In this document: piece by piece, positions 1,529-45,723 of the stretch
Position numbering within the stretch: the stretch's first letter is position 1
Layout: every line of letters begins with the position of its first letter
From: a virus
IMG/VR virus record: IMGVR_UViG_3300045988_182393
Span: 1-64,000 of that record
DNA length: 64,000 nucleotides
Strand: one strand, 5' to 3'
Program-made: the position numbers and the translations under genes
The notes under the pieces: generated by a model
Told to the model about the DNA's origin: nothing
Database searches by the model: none
The model's input: only the letters and a program-made list of their open reading frames with translations

Positions 1529-1789
1529 ATGCCAGAACAAAGAATTAAAAAATATGTCGAGGTCATTGCCGATTTCTCTCCTGAAGGCATTTTGACACCG
1601 CAGACAGTCATCTGGGACACAGGCCAGAAATTTGACATCACCTGCATCTCAGAAGTATTGCCGCGTAAATACTCAAAGACCGGCGGCATTGGGGTGCGCT
1701 ATACCTGCCAGATAGGCAGAGCAAAAACAAACCTATACTACGAAGTGGATAAATGGTTCGTCGAAGCAAAGGAGGCACAATGTGAATAA
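1529..1789 (+). CDS. small hypothetical protein co-transcribed with the Y-family polymerase
   Basis: 86-aa ORF 4 nt after the polymerase stop. No recognisable motif. Confidence 0.45.
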   Translation: MPEQRIKKYVEVIADFSPEGILTPQTVIWDTGQKFDITCISEVLPRKYSKTGGIGVRYTCQIGRAKTNLYYEVDKWFVEAKEAQCE

Positions 1790-2336
1790 TAAATACCGAG
1801 AGAAAACCTGCTGCTTTGTCGGGCACAAAGATATTCCGCCAGGAGAACAACTTAAAATATTAGTCAGGGTAGAGCATCGGCTCATTCCACTCATTCAGCA
1901 GGGGGTCACCTATTTTGGCATCGGCGGTTCCTTAGGCTTCGATACCCTCATGGCAGACATGTTAATTTCCTTAAAAGCTGCGCATCCACGGATTCGGATT
2001 ATTGAGGTTTTGCCATTTGAGGGATACCGTTCTAAATGGAGCTTGGAACAGCAGCGGCACGCAAAGAAGATAGACAAACAGGTGGATAAGATTGTCTATG
2101 CGGCGAAAGAGCCAAGCAGGGGAGTATATCTTTTAAGAGACCGGCATTTAGTGGATTGTTCTGCCTATTGCATCTCTTATTGTACTAGAAATACTGGAGG
2201 CACAGCATATACGGTAAAATACGCTCTGGAACATGGCGTAACGGTGTATAACGCTTCCAGTTTCGACGTGAGCGCCTTGCTTCAGGCTCAGCCACTTGGG
2301 AAGAACGAACAGGAAGTGTCTTCGCACAAAATATGA
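1782..2336 (+). CDS. YpsA-like SLOG family protein (DUF1273)
   Basis: GTG start with GGAGG RBS. CCFVGHKD...YFGIGGSLGFDTLMADM...IIEVLPF parallels B. subtilis YpsA (ITGYKP...ILISGQLGVELWAAE...VITPF). Confidence 0.75.
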   Translation: MNNKYREKTCCFVGHKDIPPGEQLKILVRVEHRLIPLIQQGVTYFGIGGSLGFDTLMADMLISLKAAHPRIRIIEVLPFEGYRSKWSLEQQRHAKKIDKQVDKIVYAAKEPSRGVYLLRDRHLVDCSAYCISYCTRNTGGTAYTVKYALEHGVTVYNASSFDVSALLQAQPLGKNEQEVSSHKI

Positions 2337-2398
2337 GGGAGATTTCCTGGCATTTGGAAAAATACCCCTAGGACTTTGAGCTTTGCTGCACAAAAACA

Positions 2399-2432
2399 AG
2401 CCTCCGCTCTTTGGCGGGGGCTCTTCTTGTAT
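2399..2432 (+). terminator. Rho-independent terminator
   Basis: cctccgc-tctttg-gcggggg stem-loop followed by a T-rich run. Confidence 0.6.
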
Positions 2433-2564
2433 TCTCAAAAACGTTGAATTCAATTTCACTGAATTCCGATTCAGCATTATTTGGCGTGGCTCAGCTTAGC
2501 CCGGCAGCACGATGCCATGGCGGCCGAACACAATGATTCTCCAGAACGGAATTCTCGACGTTCG

Positions 2565-2582
2565 GTGCGAATCGTATATAAT
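2565..2582 (+). promoter_or_regulatory. Conserved element-specific promoter box GTGCGAA-N5-TATAAT
   Basis: ggtgcgaa tcgta tataat, 37 nt upstream of the phosphoesterase RBS. Confidence 0.6.
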
Positions 2583-2618
2583 CTAAATAGTAAACACAAA
2601 AAAGAGAGGTGAAGAGCC

Positions 2619-3344
2619 ATGAAGGTCTTAGTCATTCCAGATTGCCATTTGAAACCCTGGATGTTTGCGCAGGCAGATGCCATCGTGAAGAAGGGCATTG
2701 CGGACAAGGCCGTCTGCCTTATGGACTTGGCAGATGATTTCGGGGTACATGGTGATGCACAGTATCTGGAGACCTATGAAACCGCAATCGCGTTTGCCAA
2801 GGAACATCCAGATACTCTCTGGTGCTACGGGAACCATGACCTGAGCTACATCTGGGGAAAACCGGAAACCGGATACCATCCGGAAAAAAGAGGGCTGGTG
2901 TGTCAAGAAATTAAAAAGTTGACAAATACCTTGCCAAAGAAAAGTCAGCTTGCATATATCCACAAAATTGACAAAACACTTTTCATGCACGGCGGCCTTG
3001 CAAATCTCTTTGTTCAGCTCCGGGTAGCACCACAGAACCGAAAAAATGTTCTCGCGGCTGTCAAAGCTATCAACCAAATGAGTTGTGAAACAATGTGGGC
3101 AACAGATTCTCCTATCTGGTATCGCCCGCAGCTGTCTCCAAATCAGAATGCAAAACGTTTGTATCGCGGCGGCAAATATCTGCAAGTGGTGGGGCATACG
3201 CCAGTCAAAGAAGTACACTTGGAAGACGGAGTTCTTTCCTGTGATACTTTCTCGACCTATCGTGACGGAACCCCATACGGGTCACAGGCTTTTTGTATCG
3301 TGGATACCATTACTTTGGAGTTTGAGACAGTTAAAGGCGGATGA
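2619..3344 (+). CDS. Calcineurin-like metallophosphoesterase
   Basis: VIPDCHL (DxH), LMDLADDFG (GDxxDxG-like) and YGNHD (GNHD/E) motifs. 241 aa. Confidence 0.8.
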   Translation: MKVLVIPDCHLKPWMFAQADAIVKKGIADKAVCLMDLADDFGVHGDAQYLETYETAIAFAKEHPDTLWCYGNHDLSYIWGKPETGYHPEKRGLVCQEIKKLTNTLPKKSQLAYIHKIDKTLFMHGGLANLFVQLRVAPQNRKNVLAAVKAINQMSCETMWATDSPIWYRPQLSPNQNAKRLYRGGKYLQVVGHTPVKEVHLEDGVLSCDTFSTYRDGTPYGSQAFCIVDTITLEFETVKGG

Positions 3345-3374
3345 GTGCCGATAAAACAAGCGTTGAGAGAAACG

Positions 3375-3601: not shown

Positions 3602-4597
3602 ATGGGTTCTGGCTGCTTCCTGCGCTGCGCGGGGGTGGCACATCTGGGCAAACTGATTGACCTGTATTCTTATCCGGTCAGAACGGCAATGCGGTTTCTG
3701 CTGGAAGATAAGACGACAGGTGAAAATATAATCTGGGCAACAAACACTTATGAACGATATGGCGATGGCTATCGGCAGGATAATCAAATTACGCCGGAGC
3801 TGATTTCCGGGGTATACGCCAATCTTATCCAGCCGCGTATTTTGAAAGCAGAAGAAGAACAGGCGGCAAGAACGAAATCCAAAGCCGAGGTCTTTACGCC
3901 CTCTTGGGTCGTCTGCTATATGAACAATAAATGCGATGACGATTGGTTTGGACGCGAGAACGTATTTAATACACTGAACGGCGAACACTGGGAGCCAACG
4001 AAAGAGCCTGTTTACTTTGAGAAAGAACGGGATTGGCAGCGGTATGTTGATTCTCGGCGGCTGGAAATCACCTGCGGCGAGGCCCCTTATCTGGTGTCCC
4101 GCTATGATGCCGCTACGGGTGAAGGACTGCCGATTGAAAGCAGAATCGGGATTCTGGACAGAAAGCTGCGGGTCGTGAACGAGAACACCGATAACGAGAC
4201 TGACTGGCTGAAATGGACGCGGCGGGCGTTTGAAAGCACCTACGGCTACGAATATCAGGGTGACAACCTGTTGGTTGCGCGTATCAACCTGCTCATGACC
4301 TTTGTGGACTATATGCAGGAGCGATGGCGGCGGGAGCCGACTGCCAAGGAACTGAACCGGATTGCCAATGTAATTTCATGGAACATATGGCAGATGGACG
4401 GCCTGAAAGGGACGATTCCGGGCAAGGAACTGTACATATCAGACGACTACGAGCAGCTATCCCTGTTTGCAAGTGACTTTGAACAGGAAACGCTGTTCGA
4501 TGAGGCGGCTAAGCAGAATAAAAAGTACGAATGTAAAATCCGTGATTGGCGTGCTATGCGGACAATCACTTATAACCAAATGAAGGGAGAGAAATAA
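3602..4597 (+). CDS. N-terminal (motif X / degenerate motif I) half of a split gamma-class N6-adenine DNA methyltransferase
   Basis: KAEVFTPSWVV (motif X, xxFTPxxVV) and LEITCGEAPYLV (degenerate DPxCGSGxFL). Ends 6 nt before the NPPY-containing ORF, which lies in another frame with its own RBS. Confidence 0.55.
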   Translation: MGSGCFLRCAGVAHLGKLIDLYSYPVRTAMRFLLEDKTTGENIIWATNTYERYGDGYRQDNQITPELISGVYANLIQPRILKAEEEQAARTKSKAEVFTPSWVVCYMNNKCDDDWFGRENVFNTLNGEHWEPTKEPVYFEKERDWQRYVDSRRLEITCGEAPYLVSRYDAATGEGLPIESRIGILDRKLRVVNENTDNETDWLKWTRRAFESTYGYEYQGDNLLVARINLLMTFVDYMQERWRREPTAKELNRIANVISWNIWQMDGLKGTIPGKELYISDDYEQLSLFASDFEQETLFDEAAKQNKKYECKIRDWRAMRTITYNQMKGEK

Positions 4598-4602
4598 ACG
4601 AT

Positions 4603-5640
4603 ATGAAGTTCGATTATGCCATTGGTAACCCTCCATATAATGCTGACTTTTCTATTTCTGGTGACAATGGGAAGTTTGCGGCCCCCGTTTATAATCTTTT
4701 TATGGACGCTGCATACGGTATTGCGGATAGAGTTGAATTGATTCATCCGGCACGTTTTTTGTTTAATGCGGGAAGTACGCCGAAGGCATGGAATGAAAAG
4801 ATGCTTAATAATAAGCATTTTAAGGTTTGTTACTATGAGCCTGATTGCAAAAAAGTGTTTTCGAATACAGATATTAAAGGTGGCGTAGCGATAACTTATT
4901 ATGATAGAACTCGTGAATATGCGCCAATTCAAGTTTTCACTCCATACGAAGAACTAAATGGCATTTTGCAAAAGACCAGAAAGTATAGTGAAAAGTCAAA
5001 TGTTGGTGATGTCGGCATTTCTAGTTATGCTTATCATTTCACGCCTATAATGCATAGAGAGCATCCTGAGGTAAAGGCGTTCCAGAGCAAAGGCCATGAG
5101 AATGACTTGAAGTCAAATATTATAGCCAAATTGCCAATGATTTTCTTTAAGGAAAAGCCTGATAATAAGGACTATATTACAATTATGGGACGTTTAGATA
5201 ACGAGAGAGTATCTATGTTTATTCAGCGTTCCTATATCAATGTGGTTAAGAATTTGGATAGCTATAAGATTTTCTTGCCAAAAGCGAGTGGAGTTGGTGA
5301 GTTTGGAGAAGCCCTTGCCCCTGCTATAATTGCAATGCCAGGGGTTGGACACACAGAAACTTTTTTCAGTATAGGCAATTTTTCTACATTGCAAGAGGCG
5401 GAAAATCTACTTAAGTATCTCAAATCAAGATTTGCTCGTGCATTGCTATCAATCTTAAAGAAGACGCAAATGATAACGCCGAGCAATTTTAAATTTATTC
5501 CCCTTCAAGACTTCACTCCCAACTCCGACATTAACTGGTCGGCTTCCATCCGCGACATTGACCAGCAGCTCTACAAGAAGTACGGTCTTTCCCAGCAGGA
5601 AATCGACTTCATCGAATCTCATGTAAAGGAGATGGCATAA
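4603..5640 (+). CDS. Catalytic (NPPY) half of an Eco57I-like N6-adenine DNA methyltransferase
   Basis: MKFDYAIGNPPYNADF (motif IV) then PARFLFNAGSTPKAWNEKMLNN (Eco57I-family P..FL....K.R..LL block). RBS aagggagag. Confidence 0.75.
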   Translation: MKFDYAIGNPPYNADFSISGDNGKFAAPVYNLFMDAAYGIADRVELIHPARFLFNAGSTPKAWNEKMLNNKHFKVCYYEPDCKKVFSNTDIKGGVAITYYDRTREYAPIQVFTPYEELNGILQKTRKYSEKSNVGDVGISSYAYHFTPIMHREHPEVKAFQSKGHENDLKSNIIAKLPMIFFKEKPDNKDYITIMGRLDNERVSMFIQRSYINVVKNLDSYKIFLPKASGVGEFGEALAPAIIAMPGVGHTETFFSIGNFSTLQEAENLLKYLKSRFARALLSILKKTQMITPSNFKFIPLQDFTPNSDINWSASIRDIDQQLYKKYGLSQQEIDFIESHVKEMA

Positions 5641-5641
5641 T

Positions 5642-12066: not shown

Positions 12067-13611
12067 TTAGTCGTGGGTTATTGACTCTTCAGTTTTCTTT
12101 TTCAGCCATTGTCTTCTCACAAACGGCGTGACATAAGTTTCATCACTCTTCAGCTCATAGCCATAGCTTTCAGCTATCAGGATGGCACGTTCGCTTGCTT
12201 TCTGTCCGGCAGGCAGGTGGCGAATGAAACCATTGATGTTTTTGGACGAAGCATCATATTTGGACTTGTCGAACACCCGCAGCGGCTCGTCGTCACCATT
12301 GCCTTTCTTGCGATAATCGCGGGGCTTTCCGCCAATCATCAGACAACGAATCCCAAATGGAACATCCGCGTGTGTCACAAACGAAGACCGGAACGACGCA
12401 TCAGTGGGCAGAACATCCGGCAAATCACAGGCGAGAGAAGTGTACAGCCAGAGAATCAGATTCGTGACGCTGTCAACCAGCTCTGGAAATTGAGCTCGGT
12501 CAGTCAAAATATAAAACCACTCGGTGCTTGTGTTATAGTATCCGGCCAGGTCACCGAACTTGGTTACGATTTTATACAGACATACAATCTCGTTGTCGCG
12601 GCAAGTCTCTTTCAGCTTAATTTCCTGTATCAGCTGGCAGGCATCAAACTGAAACAATGCACCGTTGGCGGGAAGAGTTCTGCGGCGATGGTGCAGCGTA
12701 TCTTTCAGAAACTCTGTCGTATATTTGGGTGAGATGGGCTTTGGCCACCAGGACCACATGTTCGGAGTATTCTCAATCAGCGGCTTGTCCGGCAACATGT
12801 CCACGGTATACTCGTTCACATAGGTGGCCATCGAAAGGACAGTGTTCGTATACAAATGCGAGAGCAAAGCGAGGTCGTTGATGCTATCGAAATCTGCAAC
12901 ATTCTCATAGCCATAACGCTTGTAGTACGAAAAGACCATATCCAAGCGTCTGTCTTCAGAAATCTGAGATTCACATTTGTCGTATGGCCGATTGTTGAAA
13001 AGAGCATCACTATAATAGACAGGAACATCGGCGAGGGGATAGGGGTCCCGGATGATGATTGGCTCGTTCTCAGTTGAGATACCGACAATGTTGTTCACAA
13101 TATCGAATTCCTGAGGCTTGAGGTATTCGCTCCCCTGCATCAGCATATCGATTACCGCGTACAGGACAGAATCATTACGTTCCACATTTCCGTCAATGGA
13201 TAATCCTGAATGAACACATTCCTGCGCATAAGCAATAGCCTTGAAATACAGAGCATAGTCCTTATTCTTCTTGATGGGCTTTGTGAGCCCCTGCAAAAAC
13301 TGATGATAGCCTTTAATGAACTTGTCGGGGTTTGCCATGGCAAGCTCTACCTGAGAGCTGACGGCCTCAATGATGGGTTTGCACTCCTCAGCTTCACGGA
13401 CCAGGTGAAAGAGGAAAGTAGATGCTTTCCCAAAATCCATGTCATGCAATGTCGTCGCAACCTGGCAAGCGCTGGACAGGGTTCTTCTCTGAAATACCCA
13501 GATAGACTCGCCCTTGCTCCGATATTTCTTATCCCATACCGGTGCGTATTTATCGACTAAGGTATTACCGAAATCTTCCTGCACTGCCAAAACACCATTT
13601 TCGTTCTGCAC
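12067..13611 (-). CDS. Hypothetical 514-aa protein, downstream partner of the ART-HD gene
   Basis: Long ORF on the minus strand, 10 nt downstream of the 13622-15019 gene. No recognisable motif. Confidence 0.55.
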   Translation of the reverse strand: MQNENGVLAVQEDFGNTLVDKYAPVWDKKYRSKGESIWVFQRRTLSSACQVATTLHDMDFGKASTFLFHLVREAEECKPIIEAVSSQVELAMANPDKFIKGYHQFLQGLTKPIKKNKDYALYFKAIAYAQECVHSGLSIDGNVERNDSVLYAVIDMLMQGSEYLKPQEFDIVNNIVGISTENEPIIIRDPYPLADVPVYYSDALFNNRPYDKCESQISEDRRLDMVFSYYKRYGYENVADFDSINDLALLSHLYTNTVLSMATYVNEYTVDMLPDKPLIENTPNMWSWWPKPISPKYTTEFLKDTLHHRRRTLPANGALFQFDACQLIQEIKLKETCRDNEIVCLYKIVTKFGDLAGYYNTSTEWFYILTDRAQFPELVDSVTNLILWLYTSLACDLPDVLPTDASFRSSFVTHADVPFGIRCLMIGGKPRDYRKKGNGDDEPLRVFDKSKYDASSKNINGFIRHLPAGQKASERAILIAESYGYELKSDETYVTPFVRRQWLKKKTEESITHD

Positions 13612-13621: not shown

Positions 13622-15019
13622 TTACAACTTTAACTGCCCCACACAACTCTGCGCAGTGGGCAGTAGTTTGTGGGTTATCTCGTTGCGGAAATACTTAGGG
13701 TCCACGGCCCGCATCCCGAACCGCACACGGTCTAAAGCATCTGCATCCTTGAGAATCGTATATAGCAGCCACACCCGTTCTTTGTCCCGGATATTGGATG
13801 CTTTGAGGTCTGCAAGAGCCTTGCGGTCATCCAAGCAATGATACTCGATGAGGAAAGCAGTTGCCGGATTGCAGTCGGAGGCTGTGTCATAATAAATGTC
13901 CCTAGACTTTGCTCCGTGGCTGTCATCGACATCATCGTTTGTCCGCCCAATATCATGATAAAGAATCGCATCACATAGCTGGTGGGATTCTTTTTTTGTT
14001 AAGGCAATGCCCTGAACCTGAACCAAAAGCAGCGCATCAAAGAGAACTCGCAGCGTATGCTCGGCGTCGTGCTCCTCATCATTAGCCCGGCCATAAGCAT
14101 CATACAGAGAGGAAATGCGGCTCCGGTAGCGCTGGTAGAGAGGGTAGAACTCCTGAATTTCATCTGTCAGAGCGTTAATGCCGTACAGTGTATCGACCTT
14201 TCTATCTTTTACGGCAGCCGGTGGGACAAGGACCTCTTTTTCTTCATCATTCGGAAAATACTCGATGATGTCACATTTGCTGACATGGGCAGTGATGATT
14301 CTGCTGTTCTCGAGACTCGGGATGCGGCAGGCGAAGAAACAGGCTGCCTTGTAGCTTGTGGTCCAGGAGAAAGATTTCTCGTATGGAGTTGACTTACTCC
14401 CTTCCCCGCGATAGATGGTCACAACATCCGGCAGGCTAGACAGCTTCTTTTCAGTGTTCTGCTTTTGTTTCTGAGACTTTCCAGAAAAGACTTTCTGAAG
14501 GTTATCCTCTTTGAGAGCCGAGAACCCAAAATCACTGGTACGATAGAAGTCCAAAAAAAGTGCGTATAGATTCTCACCCGGACTGGACAACTCAATGTAT
14601 TTAGAAAGAACCGATACACGCAGGCTGTCTTCCAGGGAAAAGAGGTAGCCGCGAATGAAGGGGACGTTTCCCGATGAGATTTTCTCGGCCATATCCAGAA
14701 CTCTCTGCTGAAACTTTTCATCCGATTCGCCGTTCACAGCCAGACGCTTGTCGCCATAAATGTTTAGAGAAAGAACGATGGGAATGGCCGGATTATCGAG
14801 TTCGCAGTAATAGAGCGGGGCCAACATATTGCGAGCGGCATAAATCCTGGTGATGGGCAGTCTCGGATACTTCTTAGCGAATTCAGAGGCCGTTATACCG
14901 ATGCTGTAGCCTTCTTTGTAGTACCGTTCAATATCCGCGCTCGTCTGCACTGCAGTAAGGGGAAGCATCGTATCAAGACTTGCTTGGTTGATGCTTACAA
15001 GAATATCCCCGACCGTCAT
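13622..15019 (-). CDS. Putative ADP-ribosyltransferase (R-S-E-like) fused to a C-terminal HD-domain phosphohydrolase
   Basis: Middle: VTIYRGEG (aromatic-R), SFSWTTSY (STS-like), NDEEKEVLVPP (ExE ARTT-like). C-terminus: HDAEHTLRV...LYHDIGR...HG...LKDADALDR (HD motifs). Confidence 0.55.
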   Translation of the reverse strand: MTVGDILVSINQASLDTMLPLTAVQTSADIERYYKEGYSIGITASEFAKKYPRLPITRIYAARNMLAPLYYCELDNPAIPIVLSLNIYGDKRLAVNGESDEKFQQRVLDMAEKISSGNVPFIRGYLFSLEDSLRVSVLSKYIELSSPGENLYALFLDFYRTSDFGFSALKEDNLQKVFSGKSQKQKQNTEKKLSSLPDVVTIYRGEGSKSTPYEKSFSWTTSYKAACFFACRIPSLENSRIITAHVSKCDIIEYFPNDEEKEVLVPPAAVKDRKVDTLYGINALTDEIQEFYPLYQRYRSRISSLYDAYGRANDEEHDAEHTLRVLFDALLLVQVQGIALTKKESHQLCDAILYHDIGRTNDDVDDSHGAKSRDIYYDTASDCNPATAFLIEYHCLDDRKALADLKASNIRDKERVWLLYTILKDADALDRVRFGMRAVDPKYFRNEITHKLLPTAQSCVGQLKL

Positions 15020-28207: not shown

Positions 28208-30403
28208 ATGATTACAACAAAGAAGATTGACCCACGGCCATATCAGCAGAAAGCTGCTGCGGCGATTCACAGAGAGTGGGATGCCGGGAATAAGAAAACG
28301 CTGGTTGTGATGCCGACCGGAACCGGCAAAACTATTGTGTTTGCAAGCATCGTGAACGACCAGGTGGCAAAGGGCGAACACGTTTTGATTCTTGCGCACC
28401 GGGAAGAGCTTTTACAGCAGGCAAGCGACAAGCTCAAGATGGTGACGGGGCTAGAGACCGCGTTAGAGAAAGCGCAAAGCTCGGCGCTCGATTCCGATAA
28501 GATAGTCGTGGTTGCCAGTGTTCAGACTCTCTCTAAGCAGAATCGGTTAATGAAGTATCCGCGTGATTATTTCGGGACTATCATCATTGATGAAGCGCAT
28601 CACACGGCAGCCAAAACTTACAAGGGAATTCTCGAGCATTTCATCGATGCCAAAGTGTTGGGCGTGACCGCAACACCCGACCGAAGCGACATGAAATCCC
28701 TATCTGATATCTTTGATAGTCTTGCATTTGAATATAAGCTCCCGGATGCAATTCGGGAAGGATATCTCTGCAAAATTAACACGAAGACAATTCCGGTCGA
28801 GGTAGACATCAGCAAGGTTCATATCAATGCCGGTGATTTCAGTGCTCAGGACCTCGGCAATGTTCTTGACCTGTATCTGGACACGATTGCGGATGCCATT
28901 GTGCGAGAATGCCAGAACCGAAAGACTGTCATCTTTACGCCTCTGGTACGAATCAGCAAAAGACTGTGTAATATCCTCAATAAGCGAAACTTCAAGACCG
29001 CAGAAGTCAACGGCGCGTCTGCGGACCGGAAGGACGTTCTGAAAGGGTTTGACAATGGCGAGTACAAGGCGCTGACGAACGCGATGCTCCTGACGGAAGG
29101 CTGGGATTGCCCGACCGTTGACTGTATCATCTGCTTGCGTCCTACCAAGAGCCGTAGCCTGTATGCGCAGATTGTGGGACGCGGAACACGCCTATGTGAA
29201 GGGAAAAAGAATCTTCTCGTGCTGGATTTCCTGTGGCTGACAAAGAAACATAGTCTTTGCCATCCTGCTGATATTTTCTGTGAAGACCCGGAAGTGGCAC
29301 AAAAGACCACCGATATGCTGGCGGATGCGGCACTCACCGGTTCGAATAGCCAGGAGAATTTCGGGAGTCCCGAATTGGGGCTGATTGAGGCAATCGAGGA
29401 AGCACAGACTGAGCTGGACGAGGAAAAGCGGAAAGCACTGTGTGAACTCGAAAAGCAGGATACGATTCAGCGCAAGCTCAAGGCACAGCGTCAAAAGCCG
29501 AGAGGATTGGTTGACCCGCTGCAGTATATCTTCAGCATCGAAGCGCCAGAACTCAACGATTATCAGCCGATGTTTGAGAGTGAGAGGCAGGAGCCTTCCG
29601 ATGACATCATCGATAGTATTTCGTGCTACGGCGTGAAAGGGGATGCCATCAAATCTCAGGGCCTTGCCGCTGCAATTCTCAAACGACTCATTGCTCGCAG
29701 AGCCAGCGGAATGGCTACCCCGAAACAGATTCGGTGTCTTGAAAGTTTTGGGTTCGTCCATGTTGGGCGCTGGACATTGCGCTATGCAAGCAGCTTTTTG
29801 GACATCATCAGTTCTCATGACTGGAAACTTCCGAATGGGTTCGACGCATCCACGCTGGACCCGGAAAAGAATACGGCAGAAGACCTCGCCAAGCTGTATC
29901 CAGACTACAAGGAAGATGAGACGAAGAAAGCACCGCGTGGGGATGCTTTCATCTGCTGCTACTACGATGCAAGCTACAATTTGGCTCGCAAGAAGGTCTG
30001 CAACAGTGAAAAAGAAATGTTGAATCTGTATTATTCACTGTTCAATACTTGCGAAGCAAAGTACTTCTATTGTACGAAGGAAGCTGATGCCTGGATGGCA
30101 GAAAAGCAGAATCTAATTGCCAGAAAGACTGGAACACCGATTCCTGCCGCACAGCCGACTCAGGCAACACCCGCAGTACCTCCTCCCTTTGTCCCGACAG
30201 CTCCCGCTAAGAGCCACGAATATTATTGCTGCCTTGCACGCTGGGACGGGTCTTATATCGGCTATGAAACTTACAAGAGTGAGCAGGCGGCACAGAATGC
30301 CCGAAAGCAGATTGCCCGGCGCGGTGAGACGGCAGTGTATGCCACAGTAGAGGAAGCCGAAGCGTGGGTCGAACGGCAAAAGGCAGCGAGAACCAGGAGG
30401 TAA
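28208..30403 (+). CDS. DEAD/DEAH-box SF2 helicase with a ~330-aa C-terminal extension
   Basis: VVMPTGTGKT (I), IIIDEAHH (II), LGVTATP (III), LLTEGWDCP (V), QIVGRGTR (VI). Confidence 0.85.
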   Translation: MITTKKIDPRPYQQKAAAAIHREWDAGNKKTLVVMPTGTGKTIVFASIVNDQVAKGEHVLILAHREELLQQASDKLKMVTGLETALEKAQSSALDSDKIVVVASVQTLSKQNRLMKYPRDYFGTIIIDEAHHTAAKTYKGILEHFIDAKVLGVTATPDRSDMKSLSDIFDSLAFEYKLPDAIREGYLCKINTKTIPVEVDISKVHINAGDFSAQDLGNVLDLYLDTIADAIVRECQNRKTVIFTPLVRISKRLCNILNKRNFKTAEVNGASADRKDVLKGFDNGEYKALTNAMLLTEGWDCPTVDCIICLRPTKSRSLYAQIVGRGTRLCEGKKNLLVLDFLWLTKKHSLCHPADIFCEDPEVAQKTTDMLADAALTGSNSQENFGSPELGLIEAIEEAQTELDEEKRKALCELEKQDTIQRKLKAQRQKPRGLVDPLQYIFSIEAPELNDYQPMFESERQEPSDDIIDSISCYGVKGDAIKSQGLAAAILKRLIARRASGMATPKQIRCLESFGFVHVGRWTLRYASSFLDIISSHDWKLPNGFDASTLDPEKNTAEDLAKLYPDYKEDETKKAPRGDAFICCYYDASYNLARKKVCNSEKEMLNLYYSLFNTCEAKYFYCTKEADAWMAEKQNLIARKTGTPIPAAQPTQATPAVPPPFVPTAPAKSHEYYCCLARWDGSYIGYETYKSEQAAQNARKQIARRGETAVYATVEEAEAWVERQKAARTRR

Positions 30404-30407
30404 TCAT

Positions 30408-30962
30408 ATGCGTACCAATAAGACAGTAAGCCATATTTACTACGAACTCGACCATGATGTGCAGGAATATGCGAAACGGCTTTTGGCTAAAAAGATTCTG
30501 CACGCGGCACAGCAGGACAATGCCGTTCCGTTTCCTGATGAAACGGCAAAGAGAATTGCCGAGACGGCGGTGTTTCTGACCGAACGCCTCACGCTTTTGT
30601 ATGAGGTCAGTTCTGGCTTTCGAGGCATTCGGTTCAGCGATTCCGGGAAACAACCCGCTGTTTATACTACCATGGTTCAGCGCAATGCTCCTTTGTACGA
30701 TGAGCCGATGCTTGGGCGGGCCTACAACCTCGCCAGCTTCCTTGCCGCTGAAAGTCCCGATATCAGAGAAGTGGTTTTGATGAAGCATGGGGTTTTGGCG
30801 GCAATTTATAATGCTGCTGCGCACATGAAAGAGCGGACTCCGGAGCCGGGAAAAATCTCGGTTCAGAGCCAGCTGTTTGTGTCTACGGCAGTTGAGTTGT
30901 TTGATGGTCTTTTGAGTACAGCAGTAGAGAAAAAGAACAGCGGCAATAAAACCGCCGCATGA
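30408..30962 (+). CDS. hypothetical protein
   Basis: 184 aa. RBS aggagg. Confidence 0.5.
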   Translation: MRTNKTVSHIYYELDHDVQEYAKRLLAKKILHAAQQDNAVPFPDETAKRIAETAVFLTERLTLLYEVSSGFRGIRFSDSGKQPAVYTTMVQRNAPLYDEPMLGRAYNLASFLAAESPDIREVVLMKHGVLAAIYNAAAHMKERTPEPGKISVQSQLFVSTAVELFDGLLSTAVEKKNSGNKTAA

Positions 30963-30983: not shown

Positions 30984-31436
30984 ATGATTCGATTCAGAAA
31001 AGATACCCCTCGCTACTGGTTTATGAGTAACTATTATTCTTGCGAATTTGTGATGAATGGGATTCGTTACAAGAATGCCGAAGCAGCGTTTCAGAGCCAC
31101 AAGGTTCCGCTGGAAGAGCGCAAACAATTTTCAGACATGCCTCCGGCAACGGCTAAGCATTTTGGCCGTCATGTGGCTTTCCCTGCCAACTGGGACGAAA
31201 CCCGGGACGATGTAATGCGCCGCGTGGTGATGGCTAAATTCGAACAGAATAAAGACCTCAAGCAGCGTCTCCTCGAAACGGGAACGCAGCCAATCGAGGA
31301 AGATACCACCAGTTGGCACGATAACTACTGGGGAAACTGCCATTGCCCGAAATGCCGGAACATCCCGGGTCAGAACCGGCTTGGGATTATTCTGATGGAA
31401 ACGAGGGACAAGCTAAAAAAACAAACGAGTAAATAA
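30984..31436 (+). CDS. NADAR (YbiA/DUF1768) domain protein
   Basis: FMSNYYSCEFVMNGIRYKNAEAAFQSHK, MAKFEQNKDLKQRLLETG and NYWGN...GQNRLGIILMETRDKL match E. coli YbiA block for block. Confidence 0.85.
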   Translation: MIRFRKDTPRYWFMSNYYSCEFVMNGIRYKNAEAAFQSHKVPLEERKQFSDMPPATAKHFGRHVAFPANWDETRDDVMRRVVMAKFEQNKDLKQRLLETGTQPIEEDTTSWHDNYWGNCHCPKCRNIPGQNRLGIILMETRDKLKKQTSK

Positions 31437-38590: not shown

Positions 38591-38596
38591 AAGTTA

Positions 38597-39106: not shown

Positions 39107-39128
39107 AAGAAAGGGGCAATGATAGATT

Positions 39129-40007: not shown

Positions 40008-40162
40008 GGGCGAAATTAGAACTATAATCTTTTATGCCACCTCATTGCATAATTGTAAATTATAAAAACAAATGGTATAATGTAAATAATACAAACCGCC
40101 ATCCAGCACTAAACTCAAATACCAAAAAATCAAACAAATCCCATCACGAAAGGAGCCATACC

Positions 40163-40627: not shown

Positions 40628-40630
40628 TAC

Positions 40631-40670
40631 CAGCCCGTACAGATTCAGTTCTGTGCGGGCTGTTTTTTGT
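40631..40670 (+). terminator. Rho-independent terminator
   Basis: cagcccg...cgggctg then tttttt. Confidence 0.65.
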
Positions 40671-40922
40671 TTCCAAAAGAAATTTGAAATCCGGTCTGGT
40701 CGGATTCATGAGGTATAACGGTTGACCGATTATGCGAACCTCATACAAGTCAACTACCCAACCTGAAGGAGGGGTGTACTAAGATTGGCCTTGAATACAA
40801 GCAGGTTAGCAGCTTCTCCGACCACATGCAGCGGATGACTGTTGAGGAGTTTGGCGAACGCCTGAAGGAACAGTGGAAGGTTTTGATGAGAGACCTGAAA
40901 TAAACTGCCACCGAAAAGAATA

Positions 40923-40960
40923 ACCTACCTGCCACAAGCAGGTGGGTCTTTTTCTTTTTG
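40923..40960 (+). terminator. Rho-independent terminator
   Basis: acctacctgc-cacaa-gcaggtgggt then ctttttcttttt. Confidence 0.6.
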
Positions 40961-41295
40961 TACTGGCAGCAGCCTAAAGAGGAGGGAGCCGCCCAATGAA
41001 ATGCCTATTCCAGAACGTCTTAAATTGACTCGTGGTGCGATTCGCATAGAATGAAAAGAAATGAAACAGAAAGCGAGATGAGTATAATGTTTGCAATGTG
41101 TCGAGATGGCTCAACCGTTCATGCCTTTGGAAACGCCATCAGTGTCAGCGGCCGGGGCATGAGTGAAACCTATGTTTTATGTGGGAACATGCTCACCGGC
41201 CCTCATGGGTTCAGGTCGATGAACTGCAGGAGCATCGACGAGGAGTTTTGCCTGGTGTGCGGTGTACACGGCGGCAAGAATTGGTGAAGCAAAAT

Positions 41296-41399
41296 CCTTG
41301 ATTTGTGTTGTTTTTTGGGTGTGTTAAGGTCTTGATTTGTGTAGGATTTTACCCTTTCATAGGTCTTGATTTGTGTTAAGTCCTGAGACAAATACAAGA
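41296..41399. repeat. Iteron/operator-like array: 3 direct copies of (C/G)TCTTGATTTGTGT at ~34-bp spacing plus one inverted partial copy
   Basis: 41296-41309, 41329-41342, 41364-41378. Inverted gacaaatacaag at 41386-41399. Confidence 0.6.
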
Positions 41400-41439
41400 A
41401 ATCGCGAACCCGATATAAGAAATTTTGTATTGCTACAGC

Positions 41440-41457
41440 GTGCGAATTGCATACAAT
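41440..41457 (+). promoter_or_regulatory. Conserved promoter box GTGCGAA-N5-TACAAT
   Basis: gcgtgcgaa ttgca tacaat. Confidence 0.55.
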
Positions 41458-41506
41458 AAAAGATGTCGAAAGATAAACCACAACACACAAAAAGGAGATT
41501 TTAACA

Positions 41507-41826
41507 TGAGCACTAGCATTCTGAAACTTGAAGCCACTGTAATCCGTCCCAAAGATTTTGACGAACTCGACGGCCTCGCCGCTTCCATCAGCTTCCCTGT
41601 CGAATACGATGATGAAGCAATTGGTGAGGCCCTGGGCGACCAGGACCTGATGGCCTATGTCGTCGGAGAGCTGCACGACCTCGTTGTCCGTATGCGTCCC
41701 GAATGGCTGGATAACGAGGATACCAGCCTGACCATCAAGGCATTCCTGGACGACGCCGAGTGCCAGACGTTTAAGGGCCTTGTTGCAATGAAAGAAGACA
41801 GCTACACCTTCGACCTTGAAGGCTAA
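41507..41826 (+). CDS. Small acidic hypothetical protein (possible DNA mimic)
   Basis: 106 aa. RBS aaaggag. Strongly D/E-rich. Confidence 0.45.
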
Positions 41827-41846
41827 ACACAACAGTGCAAAAGCAA

Positions 41847-41886
41847 ACCCTGCTCGCAGCAAAATGCGGGCAGGGTCTTTTTTTGT
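41847..41886 (+). terminator. Rho-independent terminator
   Basis: 10-bp stem ccctgctcgc/gcgggcaggg then ttttttt. Confidence 0.75.
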
Positions 41887-42063
41887 TTGACAATGTGTGC
41901 GAGATGACTATGATAGATATTGTATTAAAGATACCACTTACCAATTTACTTTTTAACATTCCGCTTTTGCAAGGACAGCCTCATTTTGAGGTTGTCCTTT
42001 TTGTTTTGCAGAAGCGACCGACCCGCTGTGGAGATTGCATCAAGAGCAGCACCCGGAACTATC

Positions 42064-42906
42064 ATGAATAACATTAACATGAACGAAAAAGTCATCACCA
42101 TCTGCCCCGATTGCGGTTGCAAATACACAACCTACGAGGCAAACCTTGTTAGAGCTAAGCAGCGTGGCGTAACTGCCTGCCCTGTCTGCCGATTCAAAAC
42201 GGTCAAAAACCGTAAGGTAACTACGGCATTCAAAGCCGAAGAAACCCATAGCGAAAAGCTTGTTCCCGGAGTCAATGATTTGGCTACCAAGTATCCCAAA
42301 ATTGCAGCTATGTGGAGTCCTAAAAACACGATTCGTCCCGACGAAGTTCGCTGTGACAGTCCCGAAAATGTGATTGTTGTATGCCCTGATTGTCATGCAG
42401 AGTACACAACAAAAATCATCTCTTTGGTCAAAGACATCGAGAATGGAACCTTCACTTGCCCCGTATGCCGTGGCATGAAAGTCGTTCCCGGAACCAATGA
42501 CTTGGCAACCACATCTCCTGCCGTGGCAAAAATGTGGAGCAGCAAAAACGCTTTCTCCCCGCGTGAAGTAAGTGCCAATAGCTGCAAGAAGGTCGTCATT
42601 GTATGCCCGGATTGCGGAGAAGAATACGTCACTCACGTGAATTCTCTTGTCCACTGCATCAATAACGGCAGTTCTTTTTGTCCCTGCTGCACCAAGCATA
42701 AGCCGCTTCCTTTCGATTTTAAGGTCGAGTATAGCGGACCTATGACCAAGACCATGAATGATGGCTCGAAAGCAACCATCATTCGCATCATCAGCGCAAA
42801 CGCCGTTGACGTTCAATTCGAAGACGGATTTGTTCTGAAGCACGCCCGTTTGACACAGTTCAACAAGGGCACGCTGAAAGGCCATCACACGAATACTAAC
42901 GTTTGA
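42064..42906 (+). CDS. Protein with four tandem treble-clef zinc-ribbon repeats (DUF4379-like) and a small C-terminal beta domain
   Basis: Repeats CPDCG...CPVC-G-KVVPG-NDLAT--P--A-MWS-KN---P-EV x4. C-terminus TIIRIISANAVDVQFEDGFV. Confidence 0.6.
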   Translation: MNNINMNEKVITICPDCGCKYTTYEANLVRAKQRGVTACPVCRFKTVKNRKVTTAFKAEETHSEKLVPGVNDLATKYPKIAAMWSPKNTIRPDEVRCDSPENVIVVCPDCHAEYTTKIISLVKDIENGTFTCPVCRGMKVVPGTNDLATTSPAVAKMWSSKNAFSPREVSANSCKKVVIVCPDCGEEYVTHVNSLVHCINNGSSFCPCCTKHKPLPFDFKVEYSGPMTKTMNDGSKATIIRIISANAVDVQFEDGFVLKHARLTQFNKGTLKGHHTNTNV

Positions 42907-42938
42907 ACATTACTATGAATAACAAGGAGATGCTTACT

Positions 42939-43088
42939 ATGACTATCACCAACCCTCTGCTTCTTTCTACTCTGAACATGCTGAAGAGCATGAATCCGGA
43001 AATTTATCCGCGTGTCCTTGCTGCAGCCGAGGAAAGCGCCGACATGAAGGAATTCAACGCTCGTTTGCAGGTTATGCTGGACGAGTGA
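42939..43088 (+). CDS. small hypothetical protein
   Basis: RBS aaggag. 49 aa. Confidence 0.3.
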   Translation: MTITNPLLLSTLNMLKSMNPEIYPRVLAAAEESADMKEFNARLQVMLDE

Positions 43089-43132
43089 AGCAATTCTTCA
43101 TGAATAACAACTCAATACCCATTGAACGTAAA

Positions 43133-43180
43133 GCAGTCACTTTTGCCCTCAAAAGAGGGAAGGGTGGCTGCTTTTTTTAT
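43133..43180 (+). terminator. Rho-independent terminator (nested hairpin)
   Basis: agcagtcac...gtggctgct enclosing ccctc-aaaa-gaggg, then ttttttt. Confidence 0.6.
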
Positions 43181-43209
43181 TTTTATTGATAACAAAGGAG
43201 AAATCTATC

Positions 43210-44511
43210 ATGAATACTAACATGAAAATTATGATGCACGCTAACTCTTGCAACTGCGCTGCTTGCACTCCTGTTCCGACTCTTGGCATTGAGATGCCGT
43301 ATAACATCAAAGAAAATTGCCTTGCTGTTGCTTGCCCGAAAGCTGCGGCAATGCTGAGTGATAAAGACAAACGCCTTGCTTTGGAAGCCACTACTGGAAG
43401 CCACAGAAAAGCCACTTTTGTTTGTCCGGACTGTGGGCAGGAATTCGAAGCTGTAATCCAGAATGTTGTTCGTTCTGTAAAAAATGGCACTAAGGGTTGT
43501 CCTGTTTGCGAAGGACTTAAAGTTGTTCCTGGTATAAACGATTTAACTACCAAATGCCCAAAAGCCGCTGCTATGTGGAGCAGCAAAAATAAGCTTTCTG
43601 CTTCAGAAGTTACCGCTAGAAGCAACAAAAAGGCAATTTTCAAATGCTATGTTTGCAAGCAAGAATTTGAAGCCCAAATTTGTCATGTTGCTCGTTCTGT
43701 AGAGAATGACACTATAGGTTGCCCTATTTGTGCGGGGCTCAAGGTTGTTTCTAGCATCAACGACCTTGCGTCGCAATGCCCAGAAGCAGCCGCCATGTGG
43801 AGTAGCAAAAATAAGCTTTCTGCTTCAGAAGTCGCTGTTAAGAGCAACAAAAAAGCCTTCTTCAAATGCCGTGATTGCGGGCAAGAATTCGAAGCCGCGA
43901 TTCAAAATGTTGTCCGTTCTGTAGGCAATGGCTTTACTGGCTGTTACGACTGCAAAATGCGGAGAAAGAATGCTATTTCCAAACCAGAGTGCTTTTTGGT
44001 GCGTCCTATGATGGCATTCGCTGGTGAAAACGGAATTGCTAATCCTTTCGCTGATGTACGGAACATTTTGGGTGAGAATAGTCTCTTGGGTCTGGACTTT
44101 GTGGACCACATTCAGAAATTGTGTGGCGAATACAATGGCGTTGCATGGCATGGAGATGATGAACACGTAGTAAGAGACCGTTTCAAGTTTGAAGCTGCCC
44201 ACAAAGCTGGGTACACCATGATTCGCATTCAGGAGCCGGGGCTTGAAGTCCTTGACCCCAAATACGACATCGTTATGCCCGAAGGCTTTTACCGTAACGG
44301 CAAATACGATGCCGAAATCATGGAAGAAGTTGGCCGCAAAGTTATCCACCTGTTGGAAGAAATTTACGGTCGCAAGGCTTCTCCTGAGATTTGGGCACTG
44401 AACAACTTCAAGGAATTCGAGATTTGGTACGATGCCAACAAGAAGGAACTTGAAGCCAATGCACGGAAGAAGGGTCCGAAGGGCAAAACCGCAGCGAAGA
44501 TGGCTGCCTGA
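43210..44511 (+). CDS. Zinc-ribbon-repeat (x4) protein with a C-terminal DUF559/Vsr-like PD-(D/E)xK endonuclease domain
   Basis: Same CPxC...KVVPGINDLT/A..CP.AAAMWSSKNKLSASEV repeats as 42064-42906. C-terminus GLDFVDHIQKLCGEYNGVAWHGDDEH...GYTMIRIQE (DUF559-like). Confidence 0.65.
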   Translation: MNTNMKIMMHANSCNCAACTPVPTLGIEMPYNIKENCLAVACPKAAAMLSDKDKRLALEATTGSHRKATFVCPDCGQEFEAVIQNVVRSVKNGTKGCPVCEGLKVVPGINDLTTKCPKAAAMWSSKNKLSASEVTARSNKKAIFKCYVCKQEFEAQICHVARSVENDTIGCPICAGLKVVSSINDLASQCPEAAAMWSSKNKLSASEVAVKSNKKAFFKCRDCGQEFEAAIQNVVRSVGNGFTGCYDCKMRRKNAISKPECFLVRPMMAFAGENGIANPFADVRNILGENSLLGLDFVDHIQKLCGEYNGVAWHGDDEHVVRDRFKFEAAHKAGYTMIRIQEPGLEVLDPKYDIVMPEGFYRNGKYDAEIMEEVGRKVIHLLEEIYGRKASPEIWALNNFKEFEIWYDANKKELEANARKKGPKGKTAAKMAA

Positions 44512-44568
44512 TAGATTACAAGACCTCTGACGAACTCAGTCGTCTTTTTACATAGATAGCGTTTCCTG

Positions 44569-44610
44569 CCGTTCACCCCCTAACCGGGTGGGCGGCTTTT
44601 TCTTTTTGCT
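44569..44610 (+). terminator. Rho-independent terminator
   Basis: ccgttcaccc-cctaacc-gggtgggcgg then ctttttctttttg. Confidence 0.55.
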
Positions 44611-44796
44611 TATTTGTTGCGTAGCTGCGCTTTTTGCCGTTGGAACCGTAGGTGCCAGGATGCGTAGCTGCCGACATGACTTGACCTGATGTGCGAGGCT
44701 CGTACAATCAGATTTGTACGACAGATATCAAACACAAAATAGGGTTTATATTGAGTTGCTCAGTGGCCTTATGGCTGTTGGGCTGCTTTTTCTTTT

Positions 44797-44814
44797 GTGC
44801 GAACTGCGTACAAT
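44797..44814 (+). promoter_or_regulatory. Conserved promoter box GTGCGAA-N5-TACAAT
   Basis: tgtgcgaa ctgcg tacaat. Confidence 0.55.
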
Positions 44815-44837
44815 AAAAATCAGACGGAGGAATAACT

Positions 44838-45245
44838 ATGAAAAAATTTATTGGGACTGCTTTGGTGCTGTGCTGCCTGGCTCTACCTTTGGCTGGCTGT
44901 GAGGACGCAATCAGCACTGTGACAAGTACCACAATGTCTGAACTCGAAGATATCCCGAACCAGATATTGGCCACACCGGAAAGTGCTGAGATGAAACCGG
45001 AATACAATTACATTCATTTTCGCTACGACAACATTTGGACCGTATCCGCTCTCGTAAGCTACGAAATCGTGGACAACGGCCAAAACATAAAATTTGAAAT
45101 CAACGATAGTCGTTATCGAGACAAGGTTTTTTATACCAGCATGGCGAATGTAGAGCTCGTATACCGAGACGATAGCGTTGATTATCGCACGGGCTATGCG
45201 ATTTATCCGGGGAATGCCTCGAAATTTGGAAAAGGTGGTAAGTGA
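44838..45245 (+). CDS. Small lipoprotein
   Basis: MKKFIGTALVLCCLALPLAGC lipobox. Confidence 0.6.
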   Translation: MKKFIGTALVLCCLALPLAGCEDAISTVTSTTMSELEDIPNQILATPESAEMKPEYNYIHFRYDNIWTVSALVSYEIVDNGQNIKFEINDSRYRDKVFYTSMANVELVYRDDSVDYRTGYAIYPGNASKFGKGGK

Positions 45246-45246
45246 G

Positions 45247-45723
45247 ATGAGCATAAATTTTGTTGATGGCAATATTTTTTCACGACTGTCAACGAACAAG
45301 ACGACATATATCTGCCAACAAGTGAATTGTAAAGGCGTGATGGGAGCTGGACTTGCCATGCAAATTTGCATCCAATGGCCGGTGGTATATCAGCGCTATC
45401 TGGAGTTTTGCTATGGAAACGACGGCAACAAGTTCGGTACTTATCAGGAGGTTCTGGTAGAACCGAAGCTGTATGTCGTGAATCTGTTCGGGCAGAATGG
45501 TTATAGCCGAGGTGAAAGGCAGACGAATTATGCTGCACTGGCGGCTGCGCTGTTCTCGTTTTTTAGAGACTGCGCTCAAAAGTATCAGGACGTAACTATC
45601 CGGTTGCCATATGGTTTAGGCTGCGGACTTGCCGGAGGCGACTGGGACACGGTTCTGGACATCATCAGCGATGCAGCAAAAGCCTGGAATCTGAATGTTG
45701 AGATTTGGAAATTCCAACAGTAA
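45247..45723 (+). CDS. Macro domain protein (TARG1/OARD1-like clade)
   Basis: ICQQVNCKGVMGAGLA and LPYGLGCGLAGGDW resemble the macro P-loop and S-G-Y-G-P motifs. Confidence 0.75.
   Translation: MSINFVDGNIFSRLSTNKTTYICQQVNCKGVMGAGLAMQICIQWPVVYQRYLEFCYGNDGNKFGTYQEVLVEPKLYVVNLFGQNGYSRGERQTNYAALAAALFSFFRDCAQKYQDVTIRLPYGLGCGLAGGDWDTVLDIISDAAKAWNLNVEIWKFQQ

Follow-up and report, generated by a model that had tools for sequence, protein, structure and literature searches.

Erasers have been described for both known kinds of DNA damage by DarT toxins, ADP-ribose (ADPr) on guanine and ADPr on thymine. Removal of guanine-ADPr is a published activity of NADAR proteins (PMC11543638, PMC11125620), and in vitro each of the four subtypes examined, among them YbiA, acts on guanosine-ADPr and not on thymidine-ADPr (PMC11125620). 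Three unrelated phage NADARs (AdfN) counter DarTG1, not DarTG2 (PMC11825919). Thymine-ADPr is removed by DarG and by SCO6735, the latter rescuing E. coli and Streptomyces from DarT (PMC9411070), and AdfM, a phage Macro of PhiKZ, counters DarTG2 (PMC13309987). The stretch of 64,000 nt analysed here (the window), positions 1 to 64,000 of the viral catalogue record IMGVR_UViG_3300045988_182393, comes from the accessory-gene region of a mobile element that is about 280 kb long and very prevalent in the human gut. It carries a NADAR gene (30984..31436, + strand), a Macro gene (45247..45723, +) and a gene for a YpsA/YoqJ-like SLOG protein (1782..2336, +).

The NADAR and the Macro have intact active sites and are predicted to be hydrolases of complementary specificity. 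Given the published specificities, the best reading of the two genes is therefore an orphan eraser pair for both known chemistries of DNA ADP-ribosylation, and we propose with moderate confidence that the pair would serve as counter-defence against host DarT toxins. Together with the YpsA-like gene they would make up three independent, separately transcribed genes of the NAD/ADP-ribose network on the element. Because they lie in three separate transcription units, they are dispersed accessory loci and not one system, in place of the single counter-defence toolkit that an earlier note on this DNA had proposed. Its five domain assignments (YpsA-like, calcineurin-like phosphoesterase, NADAR, Macro and Pol-beta nucleotidyltransferase) all hold, at the coordinates given there, in profile, PDB or PADLOC matches, and the product lengths of 184, 241, 150, 158 and 335 aa for YpsA, Metallophos, NADAR, Macro and RlaP, respectively, are the same by gene callers on related contigs.

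The NADAR, an orphan of 150 aa and a predicted N-glycosidic ADP-ribosyl hydrolase, matches PF08719 with an E-value of 5.2e-26 and 92.3 bits against a cut-off of 35.1, its residues 4-145 covering profile positions 2-163 of 163. The "block for block" correspondence with E. coli YbiA that had been read from the sequence is borne out by an alignment over residues 2-145 (2b3w, E 1.5e-13), and the Phytophthora NADAR (8bau) matches with E 3.5e-9. In HMMER alignments to 2b3w and 8bau, residues E33, K40, E106, D113 and W116 correspond to E43, K50, E125, D130 and W133 of the solved P. nicotianae NADAR, where they are ADP-ribose-contacting and catalytic (PMC11543638). All five are invariant in 47 distinct homologues from the loci, at 34-100% identity, and the catalytic pair E33/K40 has its counterpart in E88/K95 of the E. 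coli C7 NADAR. At the E125 position a Glu denotes the YbiA type, an Asp the DarT1-associated type and a His the T4-like phage type; the Glu at E106 therefore places this NADAR in the YbiA subfamily, not in the DarG1 or T4 type. The guanine-directed activity attributed to it in the earlier note agrees with the published activity of the family.

The gene stands last in a helicase-led unit. Three terminator-like hairpins (27789-28191) lie directly upstream of a 731-aa SF2 (superfamily 2) DNA helicase (28208..30403, +; ResIII 1.8e-36, DEAD, Helicase_C), which is about 50% identical to Faecalibacterium and Streptococcus phage helicases. Between helicase and NADAR, with gaps of 4 and 21 nt, sits a 184-aa gene, p184 (30408..30962, +), for which Pfam and PHROG scans gave no family match. 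The genes after NADAR are convergent, and none of its neighbours (helicase, p184, convergent genes) is an ADP-ribosyltransferase (ART), which sets the gene apart from a DarG1. Here and below, promoter-like sites and terminator-like hairpins come from consensus scans only, and units were delimited from these scans and gene spacing. The helicase-p184-NADAR block is constant across 45 related loci, with p184 as its most variable gene: among relatives L001-L044, identity is 86-100% for NADAR and 72-100% for p184, against 96-99% for the flanking helicase and helix-turn-helix (HTH) gene. This excess divergence suggests local diversification or allele exchange, and the faster divergence of NADAR and p184 than of their flanks is a hint of an arms race. 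About four NADAR allele groups are seen among the same loci.

The Macro is a single-domain protein of 158 aa that its best PDB matches and its active-site residues assign to the SCO6735/BT1257 subclass of the ALC1-like class. In phmmer searches against PDB it matches SCO6735 (5e3b) with E 7e-13, BT1257 (2fg1) with 2e-10, Poa1p with 1e-6, DarG macrodomains with 6e-5 to 1e-4 and TARG1 with 0.45. Its Pfam PF01661 score is below threshold (14 bits against a cut-off of 22); membership of the fold is nevertheless secure because of the matches to 5e3b and to the PADLOC DarG model (3e-13, positions 2-144 of 329), and because homologues at about 44% identity have precomputed PF01661 matches. The single-sequence AlphaFold2 (AF2) model, with a predicted local distance difference test (pLDDT) score of 55.7, is too poor for use.

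In the alignment to SCO6735, N27, Q83 (FGQ) and G127 (GCGLAGG) of the Macro equal N27, Q85 and G128, and the three residues are nearly invariant in 16 family members (17-sequence family alignment). We take A129, within GCGLAGG, to stand at the position of TARG1 D125, on our own alignment to the TARG1 sequence, which agrees with the published SCO6735/TARG1 alignment. Mutants of SCO6735 at N27, Q85 and G128 have abolished or reduced activity, and through the equivalence with SCO6735 Q85 the Lys position of TARG1 (K84) and DarG (K80) is taken by Q83 (PMC9411070). SCO6735 also lacks the TARG1-type Lys and Asp, and is the most efficient of SCO6735, DarG and TARG1 on thymine-ADPr DNA (PMC9411070). 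The earlier note had named the NADAR Glu/Lys and the Macro Lys/Asp as the catalytic residues to look for; the former are kept, whereas the latter are absent (Q83, A129), and to dismiss the Macro on that ground would be a false rejection because the active SCO6735 subclass normally lacks both. The label "TARG1/OARD1-like" fits at the level of the broad ALC1-like class but not at that of TARG1 itself. The mobile loop, YSRGERQT, is two residues shorter than that of SCO6735, and has R88 and R91; the loop described for the SCO6735/BT1257 subclass is five residues longer than that of DarG/TARG1 and carries basic residues (PMC9411070).

The Macro gene is co-transcribed with a predicted lipoprotein of 135 aa (44838..45245, +), which ends one base upstream of it and whose N-terminus, MKKFIGTALVLCCLALPLAGC, holds a lipobox (LPLAGC). 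A promoter-like site (44681..44708, +; TTGACC-16-TACAAT, 10/12 matches) precedes the pair, and a strong intrinsic-terminator-like hairpin (45728..45764, +; 17-pair stem, 8 GC, then TTTTTTT) follows the Macro directly. Macro is present in most related loci that reach that far, and the lipoprotein-Macro pair in nearly every one that has Macro, with L043 as the exception. The lipoprotein could be a superinfection-exclusion gene. Among INPHARED phages, 736 records hold a Macro homologue, and the window Macro is 25% identical to PhiKZ AdfM gp104 (E 1e-6). Tight NADAR-Macro linkage was not seen in other phages: a Macro homologue lies within 10 kb of NADAR in only 2 of 28 unrelated NADAR loci. At 266 aa, the homologue P0368, from a 181-kb contig, is extended at its N-terminus by about 110 aa that look MazG-like by eye.

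In the proposed mechanism, both enzymes would act on single-stranded DNA, the YbiA-type NADAR by cutting the N-glycosidic ADP-ribose bond at guanine, and possibly at further bases, and the SCO6735-type Macro by clearing thymine-ADPr; the Macro would possibly also release ADP-ribose from Glu/Asp of proteins. The two would thereby keep the replicating DNA of the element free of ADP-ribose added by host DarT1-like and DarT2-like toxins, as AdfN and AdfM do. Genomic context points to DNA, with NADAR last in a helicase-led unit and YpsA placed after a Y-family polymerase. The counter-defence interpretation of the earlier note is supported for this pair by the intact NADAR and Macro sites, the phage counterparts, the listing in a viral catalogue and other anti-defence-like genes in the window, but its toolkit unity is not, and for its Thoeris/NADase part no specific evidence was found in the window. 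If active as predicted, the two proteins would let the element erase DarT damage of both known kinds, on guanine as well as on thymine. This would suggest that DNA ADP-ribosylation is a significant defence in gut Firmicutes, where, to our knowledge, such defence has hardly been studied.

Several observations weigh against an anti-DarT role. E. coli YbiA and T4 gp30.3 alone gave no protection from DarT1 (PMC11125620), and the in vitro activity of the YbiA subfamily is therefore no guarantee of such a role against DarT1. The NADAR of the window has no N-terminal basic extension of the DarT1-associated type, its residue 2 aligning to YbiA residue 17. The survey by Iyer and colleagues favours small ADPr-derived molecules over DNA adducts as targets for most phage Macro, NADAR and SLOG domains (PMC9503650). 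Macro and lipoprotein are co-transcribed in an arrangement like that of a prophage "moron", an add-on cassette complete in itself, which is not readily reconciled with protection of replication. Pfam and PHROG scans of the 64-kb window and of the next 10 kb in relative L103 revealed no virion genes, the tape-measure-like match among them being weak (E 5.6e-4), and the designation as a phage consequently rests on the IMG/VR listing and on homologies.

From catalogue membership and homology, the element is probably a jumbo phage of a Clostridia host. The window has a G+C content of 47%, with genes nearly all on the + strand, and tRNA and Rfam scans of it found nothing. IMG/VR holds 61 and 80 related loci; the exact NADAR protein sequence is indexed in 4048 blocks of an assembly collection, and the contigs shown with it are human-gut metagenome contigs of 200-270 kb. 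The longest contigs with other window proteins measure 279.7 kb, and the lengths of two independent ones, 279,744 and 279,689 bp, are a hint that the full element has about 280 kb. A megablast of positions 28000-50000 against INPHARED phages and PLSDB plasmids gave no match, and by this comparison the element is without a sequenced isolate relative. PHROG matches are present among the window proteins, one of which is about 42% identical to SPbeta-like Staphylococcus phage proteins. The helicase query found no confirmed relative in GTDB genomes, and the polymerase query only one close relative (84% identity), on a 224-kb contig of a binned "Clostridiales" metagenome-assembled genome (MAG). Host hints are limited to this MAG and to Oscillospiraceae polymerases at about 49% identity. 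The contig, L157 (DYBQ01000001.1, 224 kb), is the first of the public MAG "Clostridiales bacterium HRGM_Genome_2451" and carries the polymerase-p86-YpsA trio described below at 84, 74 and 61% identity; it may be a relative of the element binned into a bacterial genome.

The YpsA-like gene is the last of a unit that begins, behind a promoter-like site (154-182, +), with a Y-family (DinB/UmuC-type) translesion DNA polymerase (257..1525, +; Pfam IMS 1.1e-46, IMS_C 9.6e-23). A conserved small partner of the polymerase, p86 (86 aa; 1529..1789, +), recognised by tblastn conservation, overlaps the start of the YpsA-like gene by 8 nt at its end, and a terminator-like hairpin (2399..2422, +; 10-pair stem, 7 GC) closes the unit. 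Polymerases about 49% identical occur in Flavonifractor, Intestinimonas, Pseudoflavonifractor and other Clostridia, and the polymerase-p86 pair is conserved in about 20 Clostridia genomes (L158-L178; p86 at 29-42% identity by tblastn). No Pfam or PHROG match was found for p86, which occupies the slot that YolD takes in similar cassettes. YpsA follows the polymerase only within the element family (L157, L186, L187; 61-62% identity), and its homologues at 49-51% identity adjoin HTH regulators or PIN toxins, unrelated contexts. A general functional coupling of YpsA to Y-family polymerases was rejected, the adjacency being confined to the element family.

The 184-aa YpsA-like protein matches PF06908 with E 9.7e-15 (55.4 bits against a cut-off of 27.7) and B. 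subtilis YpsA (PDB 2nx2) with E 1.7e-3; PHROG 768, "DprA-like", matches it weakly, and source databases name its homologues "phage-like protein YoqJ" or "SLOG family protein". Its residues G52-F-D54 align to G53-V-E55 of YpsA, keeping the GxD/E motif, and W86 is kept too (motif: PMC6459960). The protein would be nucleotide-binding and may bind an ADP-ribose derivative or DNA. The statement that all three domains are known for ADP-ribose processing stands for NADAR and Macro, whereas for YpsA the link is a prediction in the literature (PMC6459960, PMC9503650), and the YpsA-like protein is without a mechanistic tie to the other two.

Co-presence of such genes follows a published pattern. In the survey of Iyer et al. 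(2022), 56% of jumbo phages had a Macro and >48% of medium and jumbo phages a NADAR; SLOG was present in 31% and ARTs in >40% of jumbo phages, and Macro, NADAR and SLOG co-occurred more often than by chance (PMC9503650). If these rates were independent, the three domains would be found together in about 0.56 x 0.48 x 0.31 = 8%. The "concentration" of ADP-ribose genes claimed for the window is real in that three are present, but they are scattered across 44 kb in a total of about 280 kb, a distribution that the literature gives as normal for large phages. The finding is a well-preserved instance of this pattern (PMC9503650) and of a published mechanism (PMC11825919, PMC13309987) and leaves the concepts unchanged; points of mild interest are the prevalence of the element, the glutamine-type phage Macro, the coverage of both guanine-ADPr and thymine-ADPr, and a further protein termed ART-HD.

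ART-HD (465 aa; 13622..15019, -) combines a C-terminal HD phosphohydrolase domain with a putative ART as its central domain. The HD half is solid: the residues of the metal-binding H...HD...D motif are invariant, Pfam HD matches 20 of 41 ART-HD relatives, and the AF2 model has a pLDDT of 91. The ART half of the earlier assignment fared less well, as no profile or fold search recovered it. A full-length phmmer search against PDB found nothing, the best PDB matches of a central-domain profile (E 1.2) were unrelated proteins, PADLOC returned no ART match, and the Pfam scan of the 41 family members yielded essentially only HD-type domains, with two single weak unrelated matches. The central domain is putatively an ADP-ribosyltransferase on the basis of its motif, R204-G205 / S218-W219 / E260xE262, which is conserved across the 41 divergent relatives, and the strand and helix pattern of the AF2 model would be compatible with an ART fold. 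The class of reference is the R-S-E (cholera-toxin-like) type, which is defined by Arg, Ser-x-Ser and Glu-x-Glu on that fold. Whole-chain fold searches returned essentially only HD/phosphodiesterase-type structures, and the closest structural matches of the HD domain are the phosphodiesterase domains of Legionella SidE-family effectors. The family counts 4476 cluster representatives at E <= 0.001. Directly downstream lies a gene for a 514-aa protein (12067..13611, -) that has no Pfam, PHROG or PADLOC match and occurs together with ART-HD in L028 and L075. In a scheme that we consider a long shot, the element would run its own ADP-ribose "writer-processor-eraser" circuit, in which ART-HD would attach ADP-ribose to a target and then trim it to a phosphoribosyl adduct by SidE-like chemistry, with NADAR and Macro erasing off-target marks on the element's own DNA. 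We know of no report of such ADP-ribosylation-then-cleavage chemistry for a phage. If true, one of the most prevalent elements of the human gut would harbour a phage-borne system for reversible (phospho)ribosylation of nucleic acids or proteins.

Downstream of the Macro, behind a promoter-like site with a TG extension (45817..45844, +), stands the Pol-beta nucleotidyltransferase of 335 aa (45893..46900, +; start at 45881 or 45893), which belongs to the RlaP family (PF10127, E 1.6e-20, 74.3 bits against 23); a PDB sequence search with it gave nothing informative. RlaP is an RNA 3'-end nucleotidyltransferase that adds 1-2 nucleotides in RNA repair (PMC12776372). Its position and enzyme class agree with the earlier note, but its inclusion among the ADP-ribose genes does not hold: a single Macro-RlaP operon was rejected, since a terminator and a promoter-like site separate the two genes and RlaP is variably present among relatives, and RlaP is not counted in an ADP-ribose set. 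The calcineurin-like phosphoesterase (Metallophos, 241 aa; 2619..3344, +; PF00149 E 1.3e-7), preceded by a promoter-like site (2555-2582, +), has no PDB sequence match and is absent from relative L075. Nothing links it to the signalling nucleotides that it had been suggested to degrade, and it is variable cargo, not counted in the ADP-ribose set.

Four other explanations were weighed against DNA-directed counter-defence. In the first of these, which we regard as unlikely, NADAR and/or Macro are antitoxin-like erasers that limit modification of the element's own DNA, RNA or proteins by ART-HD, for which the myxobacterial YarT-YbiA toxin-antitoxin pair is a precedent. Toxin-antitoxin pairs are normally adjacent. 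ART-HD, however, is separated from NADAR by 16 kb and from Macro by 30 kb, and stands on the opposite strand with the 514-aa protein as its own partner, and its ART assignment is without a Pfam, PDB-profile or PADLOC match. Such self-protection or regulation is favoured by the R/S/ExE pattern fused to a well-supported HD domain, by the presence of ART-HD, NADAR and Macro in one element family, and by YbiA-subfamily NADARs that are antitoxins for a non-DarT-related ART (PMC11125620). An improbable alternative of similar standing holds that the three proteins bind or degrade diffusible ADPr-derived immune signals or toxic metabolites instead of DNA adducts, examples being ADPr-1''-phosphate and the cyclic ADP-ribose (cADPR) isomers of Thoeris/TIR systems. 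The viral survey, which also reports the co-occurrence of Macro, NADAR and SLOG, makes this proposal in general terms and has YpsA-clade SLOG domains interacting with cADPR variants in prokaryotic conflict systems (PMC9503650); the Macro, moreover, resembles the ADPr-1''-phosphatase Poa1p (E 1e-6). Against it, DNA adducts are the substrates of the nearest relatives of known function for both hydrolases, Nudix and the other Pfam families that one would expect alongside them were not seen in the open reading frames (ORFs) scanned, and activity of this kind was not found for these subfamilies in the literature cited.

The resemblance to Poa1p, together with the position of RlaP immediately downstream of Macro, also bears on a role in RNA repair, in which the Macro would clear ADPr-1''-phosphate left by the 2'-phosphotransferase that completes RNA ligation, and would work with RlaP in the repair of tRNAs cut by host anticodon nucleases. 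RlaP acts on damaged RNA 3' ends (PMC12776372), and NADAR domains have published RNA-repair associations (PMC9503650). We nevertheless consider this very unlikely: Pfam scans of window ORFs revealed no RNA ligase, RtcB, Tpt1/KptA or polynucleotide kinase, the two genes are divided by a terminator (17-bp stem) and by a promoter-like site belonging to RlaP, RlaP was not detected beside Macro in L001, L025 and L028, all of which keep Macro, and the similarity of the Macro to SCO6735 and DarG is much stronger than that to Poa1p. There is, finally, a small chance that the three genes have no joint function and are unrelated accessory genes with a common superfamily theme, each acting in DNA-damage tolerance or another role. 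They form three separate units over 44 kb, the high base rates in large phages make co-presence expected, and YpsA adjoins the polymerase only in the element family, its 49-51% identical homologues standing in unrelated contexts. Chromosomal ybiA, in a LexA-controlled operon, and SCO6735, with a DNA-damage-type promoter, are also linked to DNA damage (PMC11125620, PMC9411070). The co-occurrence of the domains in DNA viruses is, on the other hand, above chance (PMC9503650), experimentally proven phage counterparts exist (PMC11825919, PMC13309987), and the faster divergence of NADAR and p184 than of their flanks hints at an arms race.

The remainder of the window holds accessory cargo of a typical kind, with orphan or paired methyltransferases, a phospholipase D (PLD) nuclease, a radical SAM protein and Mor-type regulators. 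Cargo varies in the interval 33900-44800, which separates a 628-aa HTH gene from the lipoprotein gene and is occupied here by an EcoRI-like methyltransferase, a HEPN protein, a GmrSD-N/HNH nuclease (PADLOC REase_II 1e-130), a DUF4238 protein, a bPH_2 protein and two DUF4379 zinc-finger proteins, and in relatives by RRXRR-HNH genes or type I-C cas genes (cas5d, csd1 and cas7 in L006). A second variable block, 3602-8938, present in L074 and absent from L075, encodes a 331-aa protein, an Eco57I-type methyltransferase and a 1098-aa T5orf172 + ResIII helicase protein that matches the PADLOC type IIG restriction-modification model (5e-19); it could be a restriction or anti-restriction module. Two genes are possible further anti-defence candidates: 24756-25643, with a precomputed AcrVA2-like Pfam match and kept in all relatives, and 53852-55033, an MBL-fold (metallo-beta-lactamase) hydrolase with only a faint precomputed match to Apyc1 (anti-Pycsar). 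The Apyc1 reading is not claimed, since our own scan lists Lactamase_B-type families only. An unusual regulator cluster of three consecutive genes with repeated helix-turn-helix/Mor-type modules lies at 59097-61228, and its 322-aa protein has at least four HTH_23-type repeats.

Among known systems, the NADAR compares most directly with AdfN of T4-like, T5-like and rV5-like coliphages, as an orphan single-domain NADAR of a viral-type element with no adjacent toxin and with the catalytic Glu and Lys (PMC11825919); guanine-ADPr specificity is an expectation for the protein studied here. It differs by the YbiA-type Glu where the T4 type has His and DarG1 has Asp, and its match to Pfam Phage_30_3 reaches only E 0.004. 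AdfN-Bas32 and AdfN-Bas60 cluster with archaeal and non-YbiA bacterial NADARs (PMC11825919), and the AdfN host is E. coli whereas that of the element is probably a gut Firmicute. E. coli YbiA is the closest solved relative (2b3w), with the same core fold length and catalytic residues and, as here, no N-terminal extension; in the dinG operon, as in the window, a DNA helicase gene stands beside the NADAR gene (PMC11125620). Unlike E. coli YbiA and the myxobacterial YarT-YbiA pair, the NADAR of the window is carried by a phage-like element and lacks a neighbouring ART gene. A further activity ascribed to E. coli YbiA, that of an N-glycosidase on riboflavin intermediates, would be of no obvious use to a phage.

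The YpsA-like protein shares PF06908 membership and the nucleotide-binding GxD/E motif with B. subtilis YpsA and SPbeta YoqJ, and differs in its attachment to a translesion-polymerase cassette, found only in the element family. B. subtilis YpsA needs E44 and W45 for inhibition of cell division (PMC6459960), where the window protein has T43 and Y44. For the Macro, SCO6735 and BT1257 (5e3b, 2fg1; PMC9411070) are the best sequence matches, with equivalents of Asn27, Gln85 (GQxG) and Gly128, a Gln in place of the TARG1/DarG catalytic Lys, and a single domain of about 160 aa; the Macro departs from them in the two-residue shorter loop, in Arg (R88, R91) for Lys, and in its place on a mobile element beside a lipoprotein gene. 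Human TARG1/OARD1 falls within this broad class of macrodomains as well, and thymine-ADPr DNA and Glu/Asp-ADPr proteins are substrates that it shares with SCO6735, but the similarity to the Macro is not significant (E 0.45) and the K84/D125 dyad is absent from the latter. Nor is the Macro a DarG2, as it has Gln at the Lys80 position, a single 158-aa domain and lipoprotein and RlaP genes as neighbours. With AdfM (PhiKZ gp104; PMC13309987) it has in common that it is a phage-encoded stand-alone Macro of the ALC1-like class. AdfM and DarG carry a catalytic Lys (K78/K80) where the window Macro has Gln, and the latter is without the phage-nucleus context of AdfM and the DarT-binding C-terminal domain of DarG2. 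If active as predicted, the Macro would be the glutamine-type, SCO6735-like counterpart of the lysine-type AdfM.

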